From positions 1 through 57,888 of the forward strand of contig CAZAKO010000002.1 in NCBI GenBank assembly GCA_964485745.1: a DNA stretch of 57,888 bases, read 5' to 3'. A program made the position numbers and the translations under genes. The notes beneath the pieces are model-generated. The model searched no databases. It was not told the DNA's origin and was given only the letters and a program-made list of their open reading frames with translations. Position 1 is the first letter of the stretch; the number at the start of each line of letters is the position of its first letter. This stretch comes from an uncultured bacterium. GTDB taxonomy: Bacteria > Fidelibacterota > UBA2242. Of the stretch, positions 1 to 12,840 are shown in pieces.

Positions 1-1459
1 CAACTTTGATCTCCTTCATCACCGGGTTATACTGCTCCTGCTTGTCAAATGTAAATGGTTCATCCAGTGAAGCAAGATTTATCAATTGGATTTCGGCTTT
101 CCCTTTAAACATACCTGAGGTGCTAAATATGTCGGCGGTTATGGTTTTGTCCTTGTGGCGATTCACAACATTGATAAAAACTGTATTTGTTGCTTCATTG
201 TACACGGTGGTAACATCCAGGTAGGGGATGCCTTTATACTTCTCCGTATTAAAAGTATCGCATTGAACATATGTGTCAACTGCATTGCCGCGACAGTTAA
301 CTGAGAACAATTTGAACGTCTGAAACAGCGGCGATTTAAAACTTCCTTTTTCCCGGTCGGTACTCAGCAGGGAAGTCGCCATTGTAAAGTTGGTCATCTT
401 AACAACATCGGCATGTCGAATAAAGGAATTCAGACATTGGGCAACTGGCAGAACGGATCGAAAATTTCTGCCGAAAGTTCCCCACTCATCAAATGAAATG
501 TAAATGGGATTGGTAAAGCCTTTCATGGCTCTTATGGCTTCGATTTGGGCGGCTGGGATTCTGATCTTTTCTTCGAAATCCATCGCGCTTTGCCCCATGA
601 AAGTATAATAGTCAGGTGAGTTTTCCCAGTAGCGATGAATGGAAATATAATCGATCACATCGCCCAGTACCGTCAACACTTTCCGGTTCCATTCAACCCA
701 CTGACCGGTAGGTTCATAGTATGATGAGCCGGAAGCGACTAATTTAATGGTGTTGTCTACCGATCGCATCGCCTTGGCGGCTTCCCGGGCAATCTTGACG
801 TAATCCTCGGCGCATTTATAACCCAGTTCCCAGGGCGCGCCGTCAACTTCATTACCGAGATCCCAGATTTTTATGCCATACGGTTTTGGATGACCATTCT
901 TAGCGCGTAGATCAGAATAGTAAGTTCCTTTCTTATAGTTGCAGTATTCAACCCAATAACAAGCATCCTGGATTGTAGCCAGTCCCAAATTCACACAGAT
1001 GACATTTTCACTCCCGATGGTGTTATTTAACGCAATCCATTCATCCGTACCGACATGATTGTTCTCGATTCCACCCCAGGCGAGGTTGATCCGCGTCGGG
1101 CGTTGCGCCTTCGGTCCGATGCCGTCCTGCCAGTTATAGCCCATTACGAAATTGCCGCCCGGCCAGCGCATGTTGGTTATTTTTAATTCCTGCATTGCCT
1201 CAATATAATCTTTCCTAAAGCCGTTTTCATCGGCAAGCGGCGAGGACGGATCATATAAATTTCCATATAGGGTATTGAATTCTGCTGTATCCGGTAAACC
1301 CATTCTCCTTCCGCTAAAGTGGATCGGCTCCATAAATACGCCATAGATTTTCGGATCAATCGCCCCGATTGTTCGCTCAATATCAATTTTGATTGTTGCG
1401 GTTTGAGAGGATAAGATCGTAGAAAGTGCAACCAGTAAGGTAACAAGCAATTTTTTCAT
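1..1459 (-). CDS. abfA: GH51 alpha-L-arabinofuranosidase, truncated by the window edge (C-terminus missing)
   Basis: Absent from the supplied ORF track. ATG at 1459-1457 is preceded by GGGAG, and the reverse frame stays open to position 1. My translation starts MKKLLVTLLVALSTILSSQ (signal peptide). It contains 'MRWPGGNFVMGYNWQDGIGPKAQRPTRINLAWGG' and 'IKIWDLGNEVDGAPWE' (acid/base Glu motif), both typical of GH51 AbfA-type enzymes. Confidence 0.8.
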   Translation of the reverse strand, partial: MKKLLVTLLVALSTILSSQTATIKIDIERTIGAIDPKIYGVFMEPIHFSGRRMGLPDTAEFNTLYGNLYDPSSPLADENGFRKDYIEAMQELKITNMRWPGGNFVMGYNWQDGIGPKAQRPTRINLAWGGIENNHVGTDEWIALNNTIGSENVICVNLGLATIQDACYWVEYCNYKKGTYYSDLRAKNGHPKPYGIKIWDLGNEVDGAPWELGYKCAEDYVKIAREAAKAMRSVDNTIKLVASGSSYYEPTGQWVEWNRKVLTVLGDVIDYISIHRYWENSPDYYTFMGQSAMDFEEKIRIPAAQIEAIRAMKGFTNPIYISFDEWGTFGRNFRSVLPVAQCLNSFIRHADVVKMTNFTMATSLLSTDREKGSFKSPLFQTFKLFSVNCRGNAVDTYVQCDTFNTEKYKGIPYLDVTTVYNEATNTVFINVVNRHKDKTITADIFSTSGMFKGKAEIQLINLASLDEPFTFDKQEQYNPVMKEIKV

Positions 1460-1556
1460 GGTTACTCCCGATTAATTGATATTTTTGATTTAATAATCAA
1501 TTATATATTTTTCAGTCCTATAATCAGTTGTTTAATCGGTGACCTCAATTCTTATT

Positions 1557-3011
1557 CTATTTGGGGATTATATCCACGATTACCCGTTTGTATCGTGACA
1601 GTTGAGGAGTGCCTTTGTCGGTAACTTTCAATATGAAGTGGGCAGTCTCCTTTTTAGCTACTTCAGGAGCTATCACCCAAACTCCCCGTGCATTCTCGGC
1701 TGAATTAATTTTGATCAATTCTTTATATGATCCGGCTTCGGGATAATGAAACCACAGGTAACTGAGATTGTCTCCATCAGGATCGGTCGTACCGCTGGCA
1801 TCCAGACCAAAGCCCTCTCCTGATTTGACCGTTATCTGCTCAGGATGTCCCAATGCTGGCACGGGTGGATGGTTGGCTTCCTTGTAGGCTTTTATGCACC
1901 AGTCCATCCGGGCGGCAAAATCATTCTGAAAGTCATCCCGCCACCGCCACAAAGTCACTTTATTATTGCTGAAGGTAATGGTGTCCTTGCGAACTGTTCG
2001 TCCGTATTCATTATAAATATATGGAGTATAACTATCCACTGCATTTGTCCAGATAGCCCTTGTCTCGGGTTCAAACGGCACCCCCGATCCGCCTTTTGTG
2101 AGCGTCGCAAAATCTGGTTGGTACAGTTCATAACGACCACCCCAGCCACCCCATTCGGGATGTTCCGGCTCGTTGAGTCCGTTCGGTATTAACGGCAACC
2201 ACGACGGGGTATCCCCCTCCATGCCATAGGCTACATCGGGATAGGCCGCCCCGAGAGCTCCATGGCTTTGTTGAATGTTTTCTGCCAACCAATCATTGCT
2301 GATCTCATTATTGTCTAATCCATTCACAAAACCGTTGATGGCATTCCAGGTGGCACTGCCGTAATCATCGCTTGGACTGACAATATAAAACAGATCCGGA
2401 AAATTATTGCGAATCCAGATACCGCTGTCGTCCTGGTCCGATATGGTATAAACTCTGAGTTTTGCGATCAATTTTTTAACTTCCGTTTCGGATTTAGTTT
2501 TTCTGATTTTAAAAAGTGCCTGTGCTAACGTATTAGGACCGCCCCAGATGCAGATCCACAACAGGCGGTTATCATTTTCTTCAAGGACTTTGATAATCCA
2601 TTCTGAACCTTCCGAGTCTTTTCCATCGCCAACTCCCAGCATTCCGTATTTTGGCAAACCTTGCTTTACCTTCAGCAAAAGCGCCTCAGCGCCTGGGAAG
2701 CCGGTCTCATGTTTATTCAGGTTCGGTTGCACTTTTCCATAGGCCTGTATTATTTTTTTTATCGATTCAGGAGCAACTCTTGTTTTTTGCCATACCGAAG
2801 TCGTCGCAATCAATCCTTCGATATCAATCACATTTGAATATAAAAGTAACCGCACCAACGATTGAGTATCGTCCGGATCCGCCTCGATATCGGTTAAGAT
2901 AATTGCCCTGTTTTTGGGGGTTACCTGCGAGTATGGAGATTGGCAGGATAGCAATAAAAGAATCAAAATTAAAACAAAAGACATTCTCATAATATTTGAA
3001 TTCCCTATCAT
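1557..3011 (-). CDS. DUF1593 / Sde_0182-like protein with nucleoside-hydrolase-like domain; predicted lipoprotein; function unknown
   Basis: Signal peptide with lipobox 'LLLLSC'. N-terminal 'RAIILTDIEADPDDTQSLVRLLLYSNVIDIEGLIATTS' matches the DUF1593 / NH-like fold and its DxxxDxDD aspartate cluster. The C-terminal ~100 aa are Ig-like ('DPDGDNLSYLWFHYPE'). Start uncertain (ATGs at 3011, 2990 and 2984). Confidence 0.75.
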   Translation of the reverse strand: MIGNSNIMRMSFVLILILLLLSCQSPYSQVTPKNRAIILTDIEADPDDTQSLVRLLLYSNVIDIEGLIATTSVWQKTRVAPESIKKIIQAYGKVQPNLNKHETGFPGAEALLLKVKQGLPKYGMLGVGDGKDSEGSEWIIKVLEENDNRLLWICIWGGPNTLAQALFKIRKTKSETEVKKLIAKLRVYTISDQDDSGIWIRNNFPDLFYIVSPSDDYGSATWNAINGFVNGLDNNEISNDWLAENIQQSHGALGAAYPDVAYGMEGDTPSWLPLIPNGLNEPEHPEWGGWGGRYELYQPDFATLTKGGSGVPFEPETRAIWTNAVDSYTPYIYNEYGRTVRKDTITFSNNKVTLWRWRDDFQNDFAARMDWCIKAYKEANHPPVPALGHPEQITVKSGEGFGLDASGTTDPDGDNLSYLWFHYPEAGSYKELIKINSAENARGVWVIAPEVAKKETAHFILKVTDKGTPQLSRYKRVIVDIIPK

Positions 3012-3038
3012 TTGAGTTAAACCAATTTTTTCGTTTCG

Positions 3039-4094
3039 CTATACAATCCTGCTTACCCCGAAGGGATGGCTTCTGCCAAAAGACGATATAAATAAGTACC
3101 GTTTGACAGTCCTGCCACATTTCATTGCCTTGAATATTTCCCGGAAGACTGCGAACTTTATCGGGGCGTCTCCATCCTGGGTATCAATTTTAGTTATTCC
3201 GGATTCAATCGTGAAAAAATCAACCATCATTTTCAAATATTGATCTATAAACATACCGGGACCATGTTGACCACCCGGAACTAAAACAAATTGACCTGGC
3301 ACGTTTGCTTTCTGCAAAGCAGCAAAGAGCAATTCGCTGTTACAATGAGGCACTAACGGGTCCGCATCGCCATGCAGAATCAGAAAAGACGGGTCGTTCG
3401 GGTCTACATAAGTGATCGGATTCGCCAGCGCACATTTGTCGGGATTGTCCTGAATCGGTCCGCCGATGAGGCTCGATTCAGGGGAATCGGGAGCATCATG
3501 AACCATGCCGCTTTCGCAGGAGTCCATTACCAGGAAGTCAGTCGGTCCAAACCAGTCCACGACCGCATCAACTGCACTGCTGTAGGTTAAATATTGACCA
3601 AGATTGCCCTCTAAATCATAGGTTGTGGAACCAATGGTATAATGTTTGACAAACCTGGAAGTCCCCGCCAGTGCCGCCAGGTGTCCGCCTGACGAGCTTC
3701 CGGTTATGCCAACGAAAGAAGTATCAAGCTGATAATTCCCGGCATTCGCCCGGATAAAACGAATCACGGCTTTAATATCATTGATTTGAGCGGGAAATTT
3801 TGCATCGGCACTCGAACGGTGGTTGGGCATGACTATGGCAAAACCGGCATCCAGTAAGGCTTTACCTAAAGTCGCCAGATCAGTCCCTTTTAGATTGTTA
3901 CCAAACCACGCGCTGCCATAGATTACCACCACAACCGGATAGGTTGGCTTTACAACTTTAGGTAGATAAATATCCAACCGGTGATATACCAGTGAGTCAC
4001 CCACATAATCCAAATCCTTCCAGCTTTTAGAGTATTGCTGGCTAAAGCAATGGATGCATACTACAGCAAAAACAAATATTGTAGAGCATTTCAT
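3039..4094 (-). CDS. Secreted alpha/beta-hydrolase (carbohydrate esterase-like, BD-FAE/CE10-like)
   Basis: Signal peptide MKCSTIFVFAVVCIHCFSQ. Oxyanion region 'VVVVIYGSAWFGN', nucleophile elbow 'GITGSSSGGHLAA' and 'HGDADPLVP' (Asp/His region). The last ~45 aa resemble no domain I know. Confidence 0.7.
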   Translation of the reverse strand: MKCSTIFVFAVVCIHCFSQQYSKSWKDLDYVGDSLVYHRLDIYLPKVVKPTYPVVVVIYGSAWFGNNLKGTDLATLGKALLDAGFAIVMPNHRSSADAKFPAQINDIKAVIRFIRANAGNYQLDTSFVGITGSSSGGHLAALAGTSRFVKHYTIGSTTYDLEGNLGQYLTYSSAVDAVVDWFGPTDFLVMDSCESGMVHDAPDSPESSLIGGPIQDNPDKCALANPITYVDPNDPSFLILHGDADPLVPHCNSELLFAALQKANVPGQFVLVPGGQHGPGMFIDQYLKMMVDFFTIESGITKIDTQDGDAPIKFAVFREIFKAMKCGRTVKRYLFISSFGRSHPFGVSRIV

Positions 4095-4218
4095 AGCTCA
4101 ATTCTCTTATTTGTACTCTGATCTTGAATATATGCACCTATTTAGTTGGTCATTTTGCCATATCGCATTAATCATGAACGTAATTTTAATCAAGAAGGCT
4201 GCTCGTTACAGGTCAATT

Positions 4219-5385
<1,167 letters not shown>

Positions 5386-5496
5386 TTAAAACTGTCCTTT
5401 TAAAAACACGAAAAACTTTGGATCACCTGGAGCAAGTAATTGTCGATCAAGAATTATTCTGCGGTTGATAGCAGCTAACAAGAATAATCCCAATTT

Positions 5497-8280
5497 CTAT
5501 TCAATTGTTAAAATTTCTTTCAATCGAATATCTTTACATGAACTGCCGACTTGAATTTCCCACCGTCCCCGTTCTGTTTTGAAATCGTTCGATTCGATGT
5601 CGTAGAATGAAAACTCGGAAACAGGAATTTTGAAAGTCAGCGTTTTACTTTCACCGGGCTTAAGGGAAATCCTTTGAAAACGTTTTAATTGATTGATGGG
5701 CACTTTAATCGTTGCATCTATCCAACGAACGTAAACCTGAGCAACTTCATCCCCTTTGAGTTCCCCGCTGTTTTTAACTGAAAAATGGAGTTCAACCTCA
5801 CCATCTTTTTCAACTAATTCGGAATTCAGTTCTAAGTCGCTATATTCAAATCGTGTGTAAGAAAGCCCATGTCCAAACGGGAATAAAACCGGTTGTTCGA
5901 AATACATATAAGTTCGGGGATTATTTATAAGGTCATAATCCCACATGGGTGGCAGTTGTTGGGTTGAGGCATAGAATGTTGCGGGAAGCTTGCCGCCGGG
6001 ATTCACATCACCGAATAAGACATCGGCAATGGCTTTACCACCCAATTCGCCGCTATACCAGGCTTCAACAATTGCATTAGCTTGAGTTTCCGCTCCTGCC
6101 AGAGCAATGGGTCCGCCATTCACAAGCACAACCACTATATTTGGATTGACCGTCGCAACTTCAGTAATTAAATCTCTTTGAACCTGGGGTAATTCAATCG
6201 TGGTTCGGTCTAACTCTTCCTGCGAAAGCCCAGGTGAAATTCCGAGCACCAGAATAACAACATCATTTCTCGCCGCAACCTCTTTGGCTTTGCTGAAATC
6301 CTTTTGTGCAAGATCCCAGGTTAACCTCGCAGTTGCCCCTAACGCATTTTCAAAATATTCAAATACTATCTCATATTCTTTACCCGGTTCCAAGTCGGCT
6401 TCGGCACCAATGGGTTTTTCACCGTGTTCAGTCCAGTCATTAATCAACAATTTTCCATCTAAATAAAGACGTGAACCATCATCACAGCTGGTACCAATAT
6501 GATGGACGGGTTTGGGAGGAATTATCTTACCGGTCCAGCGGACTGAAAACCGATCTGCCGGAACACCCGGAGCGGGGGATTTAACCCCGTAACGAAAATC
6601 TACCACTGAATCTATCCGCGTTACAACCGGTTCTCCCGATAAATTCATATTATCAAAATATTCACCCTTCATCCCGGCTTTATTGGTTCCCTTTACTTTA
6701 GCGAAATATTGTGGCTCAATGGGTCTCAGCAAACCGCCGCCAATATCGCATCCTTTTGAATATTCCACTTTTATATCCAGAGCAGCTGCTTTTTCCTTTA
6801 TACCGTCAAGCGGGCTGTTCCAGACATTGGGAAAACCGCTGTAAATACCCAATTGAGCCTCTGCCGCATTGGGTCCGATTACTGCAATTGATTTTACCTT
6901 TTCCTTTTTCAAAGGCAGCACGCCGTCATTTTTAAGGAGTACGATAACTTTTTGCGCGGCTTCATAGGCTAAATCACGATGTTCCTGGCAATCAAGTTTT
7001 TCTTTTGAAATGGTAGAATAAGGCACTCTTTCCGGCGGATCAAAATCGCCCAATCTGAAACGCGCCGATAAAACCCTCTCTAAGGCACGATCGAGGTCCT
7101 TTTCCTCCAATAATCCCAGATCAAGAGCTTCCTGTAGGTACTCACGATATTCCTGTCCGCAGCTCATGTCACAGCCGGCGCGGACACTTCGGGCAACCGC
7201 CTCTGCCCCAGTAGCGAAAAAGTGATGACCATTAATCATATCGTTAATCGCGCCGCAATCGGTGACGACATATCCCGCAAAATTCCATTGACGTCTCAAC
7301 AGATTGGTCAATAAAAATGAATTCGCGTTACAGGGAACCTGATTGAGTTCATTATAGGCACCCATAATGGAATAGGCTTTTCCCTCAATGACAGCCTGAC
7401 GATAAGCCGGTAAATAATATTCATATAGACTGCGCATGTCCACATCGGACGAACCGGTATGCCGGCGTTCTTCCTCATTGTTGGCGATATAGTGTTTGGG
7501 CGTGGAAACGGTTTTTAGATAATAAGGGTCATTACCCTGCATGCCTTTGACAAAGGCGACTCCCATCCGCGATAGGAGATAGGGATCCTCGCTATAGGAT
7601 TCCTCATTCCGACCCCAACGCGGATCGCGCGCAATATTGAGCGTCGGGCTCCAATAGGTCAATCCTTTACTATAAGCGACATGATATGCACGGGCTTCAT
7701 CAGAAATTGCTGAAGCTACCCGCCGCACTAGATCAGGCTCCCACGTAGCGCCCATCGCCACCGCTTGCGGAAAGGAGGTCGCGCCACTGGCAAGTACGCC
7801 GTGTAAAGCTTCACTCCAATAATTGTAATGCGCAACGCCCAGGCGTGGGATTGCATCCGCGTCATTGGTTAATTGACCGATCTTTTCTTTAAGTGTCATT
7901 AAACTGATCAGATCGGTCAACCTTTCTTGATAAGAATTAGATTTAAAGACATTGATGATCACCGAACTGCTCACCGGTTGTTTGCCCTTTTCTTGTCCGG
8001 TAAGAATCAATAGGTAATAACCGGGACGCGGGAAGGTCACTTCAGTTACAGGATTCCTTGCGTCCTTGAAGACAACTTTGGAGTTTTGCGGACATTTCCA
8101 CTCAACTTTCATTTTATTCGAAGAAACACTTCCTTGAAGTTGGGCAGCATGGTTTTTTTCCCAATCAATTATTTGGTTGTTCCCGGCATTAATTACCGCA
8201 GTTTGAGGATATACAAGAGTTGAGACTAAAAGAAGTACGACTGCTGTCGCGACGATTGATCTGAAAGTCTTTTGATTCAT
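5497..8280 (-). CDS. GH3 exo-glycosidase (beta-xylosidase/beta-glucosidase) with N-terminal Ig-like extension and PA14 insert
   Basis: 'KEKIGQLTNDADAIPRLGVAHYNYWSEALHGV', 'GYVVTDCGAI' and the PA14 insert 'GEYFDNMNLSGEPVVTRIDSVVDFRYG'. The track start at 8292 is TTG. ATG at 8280 has GGAGAG upstream and gives the signal peptide MNQKTFRSIVATAVVLLLV. Confidence 0.85.
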   Translation of the reverse strand: MNQKTFRSIVATAVVLLLVSTLVYPQTAVINAGNNQIIDWEKNHAAQLQGSVSSNKMKVEWKCPQNSKVVFKDARNPVTEVTFPRPGYYLLILTGQEKGKQPVSSSVIINVFKSNSYQERLTDLISLMTLKEKIGQLTNDADAIPRLGVAHYNYWSEALHGVLASGATSFPQAVAMGATWEPDLVRRVASAISDEARAYHVAYSKGLTYWSPTLNIARDPRWGRNEESYSEDPYLLSRMGVAFVKGMQGNDPYYLKTVSTPKHYIANNEEERRHTGSSDVDMRSLYEYYLPAYRQAVIEGKAYSIMGAYNELNQVPCNANSFLLTNLLRRQWNFAGYVVTDCGAINDMINGHHFFATGAEAVARSVRAGCDMSCGQEYREYLQEALDLGLLEEKDLDRALERVLSARFRLGDFDPPERVPYSTISKEKLDCQEHRDLAYEAAQKVIVLLKNDGVLPLKKEKVKSIAVIGPNAAEAQLGIYSGFPNVWNSPLDGIKEKAAALDIKVEYSKGCDIGGGLLRPIEPQYFAKVKGTNKAGMKGEYFDNMNLSGEPVVTRIDSVVDFRYGVKSPAPGVPADRFSVRWTGKIIPPKPVHHIGTSCDDGSRLYLDGKLLINDWTEHGEKPIGAEADLEPGKEYEIVFEYFENALGATARLTWDLAQKDFSKAKEVAARNDVVILVLGISPGLSQEELDRTTIELPQVQRDLITEVATVNPNIVVVLVNGGPIALAGAETQANAIVEAWYSGELGGKAIADVLFGDVNPGGKLPATFYASTQQLPPMWDYDLINNPRTYMYFEQPVLFPFGHGLSYTRFEYSDLELNSELVEKDGEVELHFSVKNSGELKGDEVAQVYVRWIDATIKVPINQLKRFQRISLKPGESKTLTFKIPVSEFSFYDIESNDFKTERGRWEIQVGSSCKDIRLKEILTIE

Positions 8281-8338
8281 GTCACTCTCCAATAAAATTT
8301 ACTTTAGTTCGGCTTATCCTTAAGGTACATACCTCGCA

Positions 8339-10804
8339 CTATTTCTTTAAGAGAATATATCTACCGCCTGGTTTAGTTCCAATATCATAAACAAAAGTAT
8401 CTCTTAATTCAACACTTTTCAGCATCGCCTTATCAGAAATCAGGGGTTTTTTTATCTCAGGAATCCGGTAAAAAGGATTAGTATTTTCACCTTTGGTAAT
8501 TTCAAGGCTTGTTTTACCTTCAGCTTTTAATTCTGTATAAGAGCGAATCCGGCAGTTGCCACCCAGGTTCGACTTGATTATTAACCTTGAGACTTCTCCG
8601 TTTTGCCATTCCATATTTTCGATTTCGAATCCGCCCCGGGCGCGCAAACCTTTTACGCTACCGTTCTGCCAAACATCCGGCAGGGCAGGCAGCACAAAGA
8701 TTGCACCATCACCGCTTTGCAGAAGCATTTCCGTAACGCCGGCCGTAAAACCAAAATTACCATCAATCTGAAAAGGCGGGTGGGCATCCAAAAGATTGGG
8801 ATAGGTACCTCCTTTTTGTTTGCCATCGGGCTGGATAGATGGTGATAACTGGTCGGCAATCAGTTTAAAGGCATGATTGCCGTCAAGCAGATGCGCCCAT
8901 AAATTGATTTTCCATCCCATTGACCAGCCAGTGGATTCATCACCGCGTGCAATCAGGGATGTTTTCGCGGCAGAAAACAATTCCGGCGTCCGATAAGGTG
9001 ATATTTGATTAGAAGGATACAGCCCATATAAATGTGAGACATGGCGGTGCTTGTCGTCCGAATTATCCCAATCTTCAAGCCATTCCTGCAACTGCTCCCA
9101 TTTACCAATCTGCATCGGCGGCAAACGTTTTAAAGTATCTTTCATTTTTCCGATCAATTCCCGATCGGTATTGAGAATTTCCGCGGCTTTGATTGTCTTG
9201 GTCAAAAGATCAAACAGCAGTTGATTATCCATTGTCGTCCCAGCCGAGATGGAATATTTAGGATGACACGATGGAGAGTTCTCCGGAGAGACGGAAGGAC
9301 AGACGACCAGCCAATCATGTCCCGGATATTCAACTAAAAAACTCAGATAAAATTCTACGGCGCTTTTCATAATGGGATAAACCGATTCAAGATATTCCTT
9401 ATCACCATTGTATTCATATTTTTCCCATAGATGCTGGCAAAGCCAGGCGCCGCCCATCGGCCACATGCCCCAGTAGGCGCCGTCAACCGGACCGTTGATC
9501 CGCCAAATGTCCGTATTGTGGTGCAAAACCCAGCCCTCGACATCATACATATCCCTTGCGGTTTGCCTGCCGGTCTGAGAGAGTTCGCGAATCATTCTGA
9601 TCAGCGGCTCATTCATTTCACTCAAGTTAGTTGGTTCGGACGGCCAATAATTCATTTCCGTATTAATATTGACCGTATATTTACTATCCCAGGGCGGATA
9701 AAGCTGACTATTCCAGATTCCCTGCAGATTCGCCGGCTGTCCGCCGGGTCGCGAGGCAGAGATCAGTAAATAACGACCAAATTGAAAATATAATGCCACT
9801 AGCTGCGGATCGTTTCCTCGCGTAAATTTTTCAATCCGAAAGTCGGTGGGATTGTTTACGGAATCAGTTGCTCCCAGATCAAGGCTGACTCGCTTAAAAT
9901 AGCGCTGATAGTCGGCAATGTGATCTTTCAAAATCTGGTCATAATTCTTTTTCAAAGCTTTTTGAAGATAAGTTTTAACCCTTTCACCGGCATCGCCGCT
10001 GATATCATTATAATTCTTGAAACTGGATGCGATTGAAAGATATAGGGTGGCAACATTGGCGTTGCTTACAATCAGATTCTGATTGCTTGTAGAAACCGAT
10101 CCGCCTTCGGTTCTTACTTTCACCTGTACCTGAAATTTAACCGCACCTTCAATAGAATCGCAATCACTGGTAACTCCGGACATAATTAATTGATCATTTC
10201 CTTCGGTTGATATGACTACCGGTGCCGGATGATTCAGTGAAGCAGTAAAGTTAATTTTAGCAGATTCGCTGGCTGTAATTCGAACTATCATAACCTGGTC
10301 CGGATATGAGGCAAAAACTTCACGTTGATATGTCACTCCATCAATATCATAGCGAGTAAGAGTCACCGCCGTCTCGATATTCAGCTCCCGGTAATAATTC
10401 AAAAAATGTTCATGCCCTGGAAATACAAGGCAAAGGCTTCCCGCCGTTTGATAGGGCATGCCTTGCGAATTCCGACTGATGAATTTCCGGTTAGCCAGAT
10501 CCTGGGCTTCTTTATACTTGCCGGCAAAAATTAATTGCCTGACTTCCGGTAGAGCTTCTCTGGCGTCAGGGTTATCATTCCGGTGCGGTTGACCCGCCCA
10601 GATGGTATTTTCATTGAGCTGGATCTCTTCTTTAGCAGGATTGCCGAAAACCATGCCGCCTAAGCGACCATTACCGATGGGCAGCGCCTCAACCCATTGC
10701 TTAGCAGGTTGGCTGTACCAAAGTTTCAACAAAGTATTACTTTGGGCTAATACATTTGGCACCGAAATCAAGCTGAGCCAACAAATCAAAAAAATGCTCT
10801 TCAT
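8339..10804 (-). CDS. GH95 alpha-L-fucosidase (alpha-1,2-L-fucosidase/alpha-L-galactosidase family)
   Basis: Signal peptide followed by the hallmark N-terminus '[44 protein letters not shown]'. The ~820-aa length is typical of GH95. Confidence 0.9.
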
Positions 10805-12411: not shown

Positions 12412-12840
12412 CTAAATCACAACTCCTTTTTTCAAGATTATATTCGCATATAAGGCTGATTCACCCGTGGCGATGACGGCATAGGCTTTTCTGGCTCTTT
12501 CATAAAAAACGAACTTATCAAGATATTCAAATTCCTTAAAAGGTTCCTTGCTTTTAATAATGATTTTCCGGTATTCGTCCCAAATAACCGGTTTGTAAGA
12601 ATCACCCGGCATCACCGCCATTAATCCAACCGGGAATTCAACATAAGTATCCAGCGGCAAGAAGTTTAATATGGCTTTTAAAATTTCCGGAATTCCATGT
12701 CCATCCAGACGTACTAGCCTGTGAGCAATTGATGCAGCTGGAAAATTCCCATCGGCAATCACGATTTCATCACCATGTCCCATCTCCATTAGAATTTTAA
12801 GGAGATCGGGACTCAAAATATCAGGTATGTTCTTTAACAT
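12412..12840 (-). CDS. fucU: L-fucose mutarotase (RbsD/FucU family)
   Basis: 142 aa. 'ILMEMGHGDEIVIADGNFPA' is the FucU/RbsD signature. GGAGG lies 5 nt upstream of the ATG. Confidence 0.85.
   Translation of the reverse strand: MLKNIPDILSPDLLKILMEMGHGDEIVIADGNFPAASIAHRLVRLDGHGIPEILKAILNFLPLDTYVEFPVGLMAVMPGDSYKPVIWDEYRKIIIKSKEPFKEFEYLDKFVFYERARKAYAVIATGESALYANIILKKGVVI

Follow-up and report, generated by a model that had tools for sequence, protein, structure and literature searches.

The gene studied here encodes P0001, a DUF1593 family protein of 484 amino acids (aa), and lies near the start of a 57,888-nucleotide (nt) stretch of contig CAZAKO010000002.1 from an uncultured bacterium of the Fidelibacterota (the whole stretch is called the window below). 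P0001 is a real and typical member of a known orphan family, and the genes around its close relatives tentatively point to the plant sugar D-apiose as its product. It is encoded within a run of about 30 co-directional genes, all on the minus strand, and no terminator-like site was seen on the coding (minus) strand between the genes. The run includes genes of the glycoside hydrolase (GH) families GH3, GH95, GH43, GH2, GH127, GH5, GH39, GH42, GH31 and GH97, a GH29 gene with a carbohydrate-binding module (GH29-CBM6), and many esterase genes. At least five genes at the locus belong to arabinofuranosidase families, and no known rhamnosidase is encoded in the window. A reading made earlier from the letters of the DNA (the sequence-only reading) had placed the gene between a GH51 arabinofuranosidase and esterases, and this arrangement was borne out (Table 1): the GH51 gene, a recurrent partner of P0001 orthologues, lies 97 nt downstream, and two esterase genes lie upstream.

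Table 1. Features of the DUF1593 gene, its product and its surroundings in the window
Feature	Position	Strand	Basis	Remark
DUF1593 gene P0001 (484 aa)	1557..3011	minus	open reading frame (ORF) call	
Signal peptide with L-L-S-C lipobox (Cys23)	2943..3011	minus	read from sequence	
Nucleoside hydrolase (NH)-like domain, PF07632 Sde182_NH-like, aa 35-294	2130..2909	minus	Pfam scan	
Immunoglobulin (Ig)/PKD-like C-terminal domain, PF21027 Sde0182_C, aa 402-480	1572..1808	minus		DPDGD motif
Asp cluster TDIEADPDD, aa 40-48	2868..2894	minus		T40-D41-I-E43-A-D45-P-D47-D48
W156-G157-G158	2538..2546	minus	alignment with NHs	
D192-Q193-D194-D195 loop	2427..2438	minus	AlphaFold2 (AF2) model and conservation	after strand 185-189
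E265-G266-D267	2211..2219	minus	alignment and conservation	
GH51 α-L-arabinofuranosidase gene	2..1459	minus		downstream; 3' end off contig
BD-FAE-type esterase gene	3039..4094	minus		upstream; 27 nt from DUF1593 start
Esterase gene with type IX secretion system (T9SS) tail	4219..5373	minus		
GH3 gene with PA14 insert	5497..8292	minus		third member of GH3-DUF1593-GH51 module
142-aa ORF	12412..12840	minus		between major facilitator superfamily permease and Zn-dependent alcohol dehydrogenase (Zn-ADH) genes

A Pfam scan matched P0001 to the full PF07632 profile (1-268) with an E value of 1.5e-111 and 372.7 bits (cut-off 26.8), and to PF21027 with E 6e-30 and 104 bits (cut-off 27). Its further Pfam matches were weak PKD-type ones only, and it lies outside the models of GH43, GH51 and GH127. 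The N-terminus, MIGNSNIMRMSFVLILILLLLSC, carries an L-L-S-C lipobox ending at C23, in agreement with the lipoprotein that had been proposed from 'LLLLSC' (aa 18-23, nt 2943-2960). The aspartate cluster TDIEADPDD had also been named correctly, although the interval 2868-2891 assigned to it holds DIEADPDD and the full motif extends to 2894.

Proteins 70-83% identical to P0001 are encoded by 80 species-representative genomes and are referred to here as the orthologue group. The majority of them start at the position matching M8 of P0001 (ATG at 2990). A hydrophobic signal-like segment was present at every orthologue N-terminus inspected, mostly of the signal-peptidase-I type (..FAQ), and export is predicted to be universal across the group. 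The lipobox was found in a few orthologue lineages only, and that of P0001 is not general to the group.

Fold and active site

Searches with phmmer matched P0001 to PDB entry 2YHG, the C-terminal region of Sde_0182 of S. degradans, at E 4e-88 and 37-41% identity. This is the sole solved relative, with no newer one in the PDB up to April 2026. The AF2 model of P0001 (pLDDT 84, pTM 0.85) was aligned to 2YHG by Foldseek with E 5e-44 and TMt 0.88; that the family has a solved NH-like fold, as the sequence-only reading held, is thus confirmed. In the full-length search, Ig-domain matches dominated after 2YHG, and a separate model of the N-terminal domain exposed the NHs: the top match was again 2YHG (E 3e-25, TMq 0.79), and the next ones were mostly NHs (4I70, 3G5I, 8CTM, 6BA0, 1YOE, XopQ and 1MAS; TM 0.32-0.53).

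The NH-like domain of Sde_0182 is described as retaining Ca2+ and being inactive on purine and pyrimidine nucleosides, with a ribofuranose-binding capability and a hypothesised interaction with furanose sugars (PMC8910321). According to PMC8910321 and PMC5294722, a furanose-active catalytic domain was already proposed in the 2011 structure paper, so that the furanosidase idea is not new. Both papers state that activity is yet to be demonstrated, and no assigned activity was found for the family in the literature searched or in the PDB entries, in line with the sequence-only reading. A 2024 preprint still lists the Sde_0182 protein as an 'uncharacterised', carbohydrate-associated hypothetical protein, and the A. 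niger DUF1593 gene An02g13630 is expressed on lignocellulose (wheat straw) (PMC5294722).

At E <= 10 the DUF1593 profile did not reach NH chains in the PDB, and no match of P0001 to PF01156, the family of the inosine-uridine nucleoside hydrolases (IU-NHs), was found at E <= 0.1; profile-profile alignment was needed. Using hhalign, an alignment of 37 orthologues plus paralogues was compared with one of IU-NHs, E. coli RihB and RihC among them, and the two were matched with 93% probability (E 4e-8, 15% identity). D11, D15 and D16 of RihB were aligned with D41, D47 and D48 of P0001, and the Ca2+ ligand D240 with D267. Residue 124 of RihB, whose backbone carbonyl is the fourth Ca2+ ligand of NHs, was aligned with W156. 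By this alignment, all four Ca2+ ligands (D41, D48, the W156 carbonyl and D267) and the adjacent ribose-binding Asp, D47, appear to be kept.

The DUF1593 family comprises 6511 clusters at 50% identity (E <= 1e-3), and conservation was counted in 150 diverse representatives of such clusters. The metal- and sugar-binding aspartates, conserved as the sequence-only reading had expected, were present family-wide: D41 in 146 of 148 representatives, D47 in 149 of 149, D48 in 148 of 149 and D267 in 149 of 153. Q193 (152/154), D194 (149/154), E265 (147/153) and H101 (144/152) were conserved to a similar degree, and R54, W241, Y257, W290 and R293 were also near-invariant. The family motifs D..DPDD, WGG, QD, EGD.P and W.GGR are all found in P0001 and are at least 93% conserved; E43 and D45 of the Asp cluster are variable. 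The expected catalytic His, on the other hand, is absent: His239 of RihB, which serves the leaving group, was aligned with G266, a Gly in 147 of the 153 representatives. Neither the leaving-group His of the IU-NHs and cytidine-uridine NHs (His239/241) nor the Trp pair of the inosine-adenosine-guanosine NH, which activate the leaving group in these enzymes, has a counterpart in P0001. These data suggest that the part of the site that handles metal, water and sugar would be preserved and the nucleobase-specific part exchanged, with a conserved Glu adjoining the old His position. E265 is a candidate general acid, and Q193 and D194 are candidate binders of sugar hydroxyls.

Domain fusions were looked for among 60 long representatives. 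The DUF1593 domain was found joined to CBM6 (6 proteins), CBM35 (5), LamG (5), GDSL esterases (4), CBM2 (2), malectin (2) and T9SS tails (8), and once each to a GH140-like domain, a sulfatase and an α/β hydrolase. Since fusions to CBMs and esterases are typical of catalytic modules, DUF1593 is enzyme-like in this respect, and P0001 looks like an enzyme and not a relic.

Tandem arrays of PF01156-type genes, with up to about 11 genes, were seen in four relatives of the window's organism (G002, contig C99; G012, C349; G025, C65; G027, C2; loci L092-L104). The encoded proteins carry a DTDANNE(L/M)DDQ motif along with a signal peptide or lipobox, and they are distinct from DUF1593. No such exported array was found in the window's own genome.

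Orthologues and their gene neighbourhoods

Hosts of the orthologue group belong to the Bacteroidota, Ignavibacteriota, KSB1, Planctomycetota, Calditrichota, WOR-3 and Fidelibacterota, with one Desulfobacteraceae. The distance from the group to its nearest paralogues is about 1.5 substitutions per site. The GC content of the orthologue genes (0.35-0.62) tracks that of their flanks (r = 0.70); recent transfer as the sole cause of the high identity was therefore rejected, and strong constraint is indicated. Transfer did occur, since phyla are intermixed in the orthologue tree, where a minimum of 6 changes on well-supported branches is required for Bacteroidota alone.

The window's genome (G000, 87.65% complete) has a single orthologue copy, and an orthologue was found in 5 of its 41 relatives. 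The genome G001 of the same genus (93% complete) lacks the whole region, including this part of the cluster of carbohydrate-active enzymes. In G009 and G027 the DUF1593 gene stands beside the GH3 gene (directly in G009, at about 460 nt in G027) and the two esterase genes that intervene in the window are missing. Evidently, this cluster is accessory and has been rearranged between relatives, as comparison of window positions 1-9000 with G001, G009, G020 and G027 showed.

No single conserved neighbour emerged: the two flanking genes on each side at 67 non-redundant loci hit 138-150 Pfam families. A homologue of some GH or esterase gene of the window was found at 35 of the 80 orthologue loci, and a second DUF1593 paralogue at 10 of the 80. 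The recurrent carbohydrate families are of xylan type (CE15, SASA, DLH, GH3, GH43, GH51, GH115, GH10, GH2 and GH31), and the commonest specific neighbour is GH51. A GH3(PA14)-DUF1593-GH51 module recurs in the window and at L014, L018 (genome G009), L020, L026, L031, L068 and L008; at L115 the trio stands by itself amid housekeeping genes. Two further candidates were dropped, namely a PfkB kinase beside the L002 orthologue, which recurs at no other locus, and the 451/456-aa ORFs that alternate with DUF1593 paralogues at L055, which are mutually non-homologous and have no Pfam match.

Clustering of the unlabelled neighbours revealed one gene block common to loci of different phyla. It consists of an RbsB-like substrate-binding protein (SBP), DUF2291, an ATP-binding cassette (ABC) ATPase, a permease, an isomerase of the Fucose_iso_C family and a split transketolase. 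A cluster of E. coli SE15, ECSF_RS02670-02715, confers growth on D-apiose (PMC13001218) and is made up of an SBP, DUF2291, an ATPase, a permease, the FGGY kinase AplK and the split transketolase AptA/AptB. By blastp, the proteins of the block and its kinases were 45-49% identical to AptA, 38-42% to AptB, 38-41% to AplK, 43% to the ATPase, 40% to the permease and 32-33% to the SBP of E. coli. We refer to this block as the apiose-type operon.

A copy of the orthologue group was found in or beside an apiose-type operon in five genomes of three phyla. At L015 (KSB1), whose copy is closer to P0001 than any other (83% identical), the order is kinase, SBP, DUF2291, ATPase, isomerase, AptA, AptB, a GH140-like gene, a gene for a 493-aa protein, and the orthologue. 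At L063 (Bacteroidales) the order is isomerase, AptA, AptB, SBP, DUF2291, ATPase, permease, a 1134-aa DUF1593/T9SS protein with a double NH-like region, and the orthologue. At L070 (Bacteroidota) a DeoR regulator, kinase, isomerase, sugar permease, AptA and AptB are followed by the orthologue, and the stop of AptB and the start of the DUF1593 gene overlap as ATGA. In a second KSB1 genome (L118) a 74%-identical copy lies at the 3' end of the operon, and in an Ignavibacteriales genome (L119/L120) another 74%-identical copy lies about 14 kb from it. In the annotated stretches of L063, L070 and L118, DUF1593 proteins are the sole candidates for a glycosidase that would release the sugar.

The isomerase was found at 62% identity or above in 9 of 50 orthologue-bearing genomes, and in five of the nine an orthologue-group copy lies within 15 kb, against a chance expectation of about 0.6% per genome. 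Five co-localisations in nine genomes are far beyond chance, even with the KSB1 cases related to each other. No other catabolic or transport operon recurs next to an orthologue. Cultured bacteria with an orthologue include Lutibacter flavus DSM 27993, Flexithrix dorotheae DSM 6795, Imperialibacter and Rosettibacter primus; of these, F. dorotheae has a mere 46%-identical homologue of the isomerase, and no copy was found in the other three.

GH140 or GH140-like genes occur near DUF1593 genes at L015, L021, L121 and L122. At L121/L122 (Mangrovibacterium) DUF1593 paralogues and GH140 stand beside the operon. At L021 (KSB1) the order is GH140-like gene, 493-aa protein gene, orthologue, paralogue, GH78, a true GH140 (PF13204, 381 bits) and a paralogue; GH78 is also present at L122.

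Several other genes at these loci deserve mention in their own right. The 493-aa protein (L015:8278-9756, L021:1423-2901) is conserved, has no Pfam or NCBIfam match, and lies between the GH140-like gene and the orthologue in two KSB1 genomes. Its homologue in G000, of which the contig holds just the first 114-122 residues (C102:3-368, minus strand), is 63% identical and comes immediately downstream of rhaA, the L-rhamnose isomerase gene. The 1134-aa protein (L063:6468-9869), directly upstream of its orthologue, has two NH-like stretches, the first weakly PF01156-like, together with Sde0182_C, a PKD domain, a region resembling GH115_C and a T9SS tail. Between the apiose-type operon and DUF1593 genes, at L118:4618-5427 and L119:9537-10346 (both minus strand), lies a gene for a secreted protein of 270 aa whose GNSIT motif is SGNH/GDSL-like; this protein has no NCBIfam match and echoes the GDSL-DUF1593 fusions found in 4 of the 60 long family members. 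The Ignavibacteriales contig (G085, C41, 3-92 kb) carries a very large expansion of 11 DUF1593 genes around its operon, and a 1235-aa GH127-like gene.

Proposed activity, rivals and comparison with known systems

NHs chelate the cis-2',3'-diol of a β-ribofuranoside and the attacking water through Ca2+, and the reaction inverts the configuration. β-D-Apiofuranosides have a cis-2,3-diol and a 1,2-trans aglycone; α-L-arabinofuranose, β-L-arabinofuranose and β-D-galactofuranose have trans-2,3-diols. Since an NH-type Ca2+ site would chelate a cis-2,3-diol, stereochemistry would fit apiose and argue against an arabinofuranosidase. Among the substrates listed by the sequence-only reading, apiofuranoside is singled out by the comparative evidence; arabino- and galactofuranosides are disfavoured by the stereochemistry. 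Because genes of close relatives lie inside apiose-type operons for sugar import and catabolism, P0001 may well be a Ca2+-dependent enzyme of a new kind that removes apiose from plant glycans. More exactly, we propose, with a probability of about 0.45, an exo-glycosidase of NH fold that depends on Ca2+, works with inversion and releases D-apiose, i.e. a β-D-apiofuranosidase.

By analogy with NHs, the Ca2+ held by D41, D48, D267 and the W156 carbonyl would chelate the cis-2,3-diol of the terminal furanose and a water molecule, and D47, Q193 and D194 would hold the sugar hydroxyls. The Ca2+-bound water would be activated by D41 and attack C1 on the face opposite the aglycone, giving inversion. 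E265, in place of the NH His, would donate a proton to the O-glycosidic leaving group. Family membership, the conserved site, export and the genomic associations were observed directly; catalysis, the parts played by single residues and the substrate are inferred from them. The likeliest glycone would be β-D-apiofuranose, with its cis-2,3-diol and its 1,2-trans linkage as in a β-riboside. In the window's organism, the enzyme might strip apiosyl caps from plant glycans or diglycosides, leaving the GH3 and GH51 enzymes to finish. Apiosidase, arabinofuranosidase and β-glucosidase act in sequence on plant diglycosides (PMC10742834), and the GH3-DUF1593-GH51 trio might be read in the light of such sequential breakdown.

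Several observations weigh against apiose. The isomerase was not found in 41 of the 50 orthologue-bearing genomes, in a search that did not extend to the three oxidative apiose routes. The operon owes its apiose label to identities of 32-49% with the E. coli proteins; NCBIfam holds no apiose models, the L070 kinase (the one scanned) scored above its glycerol-kinase cut-off, and the isomerase matched sulfoquinovose isomerase alone, far below cut-off. The window's genome itself yielded no isomerase, SBP or DUF2291 gene of the apiose type and has just two GH140 homologues, on other contigs (C50 and C254). The window locus is of hemicellulose and not pectin type, and 45 of the 80 orthologue loci have no homologue of any GH or esterase gene of the window. 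GH140 often co-occurs, so that DUF1593 could remove another residue from apiose-containing glycans. Finally, biochemical activity has been reported for no DUF1593 member, the Sde_0182 domain being reported inactive on nucleosides.

Other genes of the window's genome were inspected for apiose-type surroundings. A split transketolase on C146 is accompanied by a GntP permease and a Zn-ADH, and no apiose-type genes adjoin an FGGY kinase on C5. A second GH cluster (C50:1-13529) contains GH2, a GH127-like gene, a T9SS-tailed protein and one of the GH140-family genes, sharing 62% identity with the L021 GH140. This cluster suggests that the organism handles pectin fragments of the rhamnogalacturonan II (RG-II) type.

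The main rival, which we regard as doubtful, is an enzyme of the same Ca2+-dependent type that acts on another glycone of xylan or hemicellulose, the apiose operons then reflecting only some members of the orthologue group. The glycone could be another cis-diol sugar (α-L-rhamnose or β-D-ribofuranose), or the substrate an aryl glycoside (lignin-carbohydrate or plant phenolic). The hemicellulose genes at 35 of the 80 loci, the recurrent GH3-DUF1593-GH51 module and the immediate neighbours of orthologues (CE15 glucuronoyl esterase, SASA-type acetylesterases, GH43, GH115, GH10, GH51 and GH3) speak for this explanation, as do the absence of a known rhamnosidase from the window, the GH78 genes of L021 and L122, and the homologue of the 493-aa partner beside rhaA. 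However, no orthologue was seen to adjoin genes for the catabolism of rhamnose or ribose, the only catabolic or transport operon that recurs there is the apiose-type one, and 72-83% identity would lead one to expect a single specificity among the orthologues.

Next comes a non-catalytic role, to which we give little weight: P0001 would be a Ca2+-dependent sugar-binding protein, a surface or periplasmic module for furanose-containing glycans as in the 'furanose-interacting module' idea of the NH review. The reported inactivity of Sde_0182, with its preserved Ca2+ site and ribofuranose-binding capability (PMC8910321), the missing catalytic His, and a lipoprotein with an Ig-like domain resembling surface glycan-binding proteins would all agree with it. 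It sits poorly with the near-invariance of polar residues beyond the metal ligands (H101, Q193, D194, E265 and R293), with the fusion of the DUF1593 domain itself to CBMs and esterases in the manner of catalytic modules, with up to 11 paralogues per contig, and with L070, a compact catabolic operon in which no other protein is a candidate for releasing the sugar.

An α-L- or β-L-arabinofuranosidase or a galactofuranosidase, as drawn from the furanosidase-rich locus, appears improbable. GH51 is indeed the commonest specific neighbour, and GH43, GH51 and GH127 genes are present at the locus; yet an NH-derived Ca2+ site would chelate a cis-2,3-diol, which L-arabinofuranose and D-galactofuranose lack, at least five arabinofuranosidase-family genes are already at hand, and no arabinose catabolic operon recurs beside an orthologue. 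The O-furanosidase role proposed by the sequence-only reading therefore stands in part: a non-nucleoside, furanoside-type glycosidase is the best reading, and the argument from the neighbourhood fails, as more than half of the orthologue loci lack those neighbours. A true extracellular N-ribohydrolase that obtains ribose from N-ribosides such as nucleosides and NAD-type compounds is very unlikely, for despite the NH-like fold, the intact Ca2+ site and the RbsB-like SBP of adjacent operons, P0001 has no PF01156 match, has an invariant Gly in place of the leaving-group His, is exported and is associated with plant-glycan genes, and Sde_0182 is reported to be inactive on purine and pyrimidine nucleosides (PMC8910321).

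What is new here is a tight but patchy orthologue group, the recurrent GH3-DUF1593-GH51 module and the association with apiose operons. DUF1593, with more than 6,500 clusters at 50% identity and a crystal structure since 2011, has had no function. Should an NH fold prove to carry Ca2+-dependent hydrolysis of O-glycosides, a mechanistically distinct glycoside hydrolase family would be added, and the chief enzyme missing from the microbial use of apiose supplied. Apiose is a constituent of RG-II, of seagrass and duckweed apiogalacturonans and of over 1,200 apiosides from plants (PMC10602602). The gene of an enzyme already in use in the flavour industry could also be identified. The question is now directly testable, with the residues to mutate named and, in L070, a compact operon with a sole candidate for the releasing enzyme. 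We hold a wider proposal with less confidence, as a possibility: DUF1593 would be a new GH family in which the NH fold and its Ca2+-water machinery were turned to O-glycosides, the orthologue group would be an inverting β-D-apiofuranosidase spread horizontally among sediment and soil bacteria, and the family would also supply the Aspergillus β-apiosidase of wine and juice processing.

Among known systems, Sde_0182 (also Cbm2C; 2YHG; Hehemann, Marsters and Boraston 2011), the founding structure of PF07632 and PF21027, is the closest. It has the same NH-like domain followed by an Ig-like domain and the same DPDD, WGG, QD and EGDTP motifs as P0001, but three N-terminal CBMs where P0001 has a lipoprotein signal alone, and insertions at about aa 213-239 and 299-345 also set P0001 apart. 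The likeness to the IU-NHs (PF01156; RihA, RihB and RihC, and the Crithidia IU-NH 1MAS) consists of remote homology, a remote fold match and the Ca2+ ligands. The P0001 family differs from them in its motif (D-x-E/G-x-D/E-x-D-D versus DxDxxxDD), in the Gly and preceding conserved Glu in place of the catalytic His, and, for P0001, in export, the extra Ig-like domain and the plant-glycan associations. The GH47 and GH92 α-mannosidases are inverting enzymes in which Ca2+ binds the cis-2,3-diol of the glycone. Their way of working is thus similar to that proposed here, but they have unrelated folds, a pyranose glycone and no homology to DUF1593.

GH140, a family of (β/α)8 barrels, includes the β-D-apiosidase BT1012 of B. 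thetaiotaomicron, which shares the proposed product D-apiose. GH140 or GH140-like genes have loci in common with DUF1593, and one DUF1593 representative is fused to a GH140-like domain. GH140 is an unrelated family (PF13204, with DUF5060), to which P0001 has no match. DUF1593 would be expected to take apiosidic linkages other than those of GH140. The linkage cleaved by BT1012 is that between apiofuranose and galacturonic acid (GalA) in RG-II (Apif-β-1,2-GalA; bioRxiv 10.64898/2026.03.13.711244).

As for the Aspergillus β-apiosidase, a possible link to DUF1593 is drawn by analogy, and we know of no gene assigned to this enzyme. Besides plants and BT1012, apiosidase is known only from aspergilli (PMC10059904). 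The enzyme purified from A. niger and A. aculeatus preparations releases apiose from plant diglycosides ahead of β-glucosidase (PMC10059904, PMC10742834), and the commercial Aspergillus enzymes invert the configuration (PMC10059904). An NH-type mechanism would predict the same inversion, and A. niger encodes the DUF1593 protein An02g13630.

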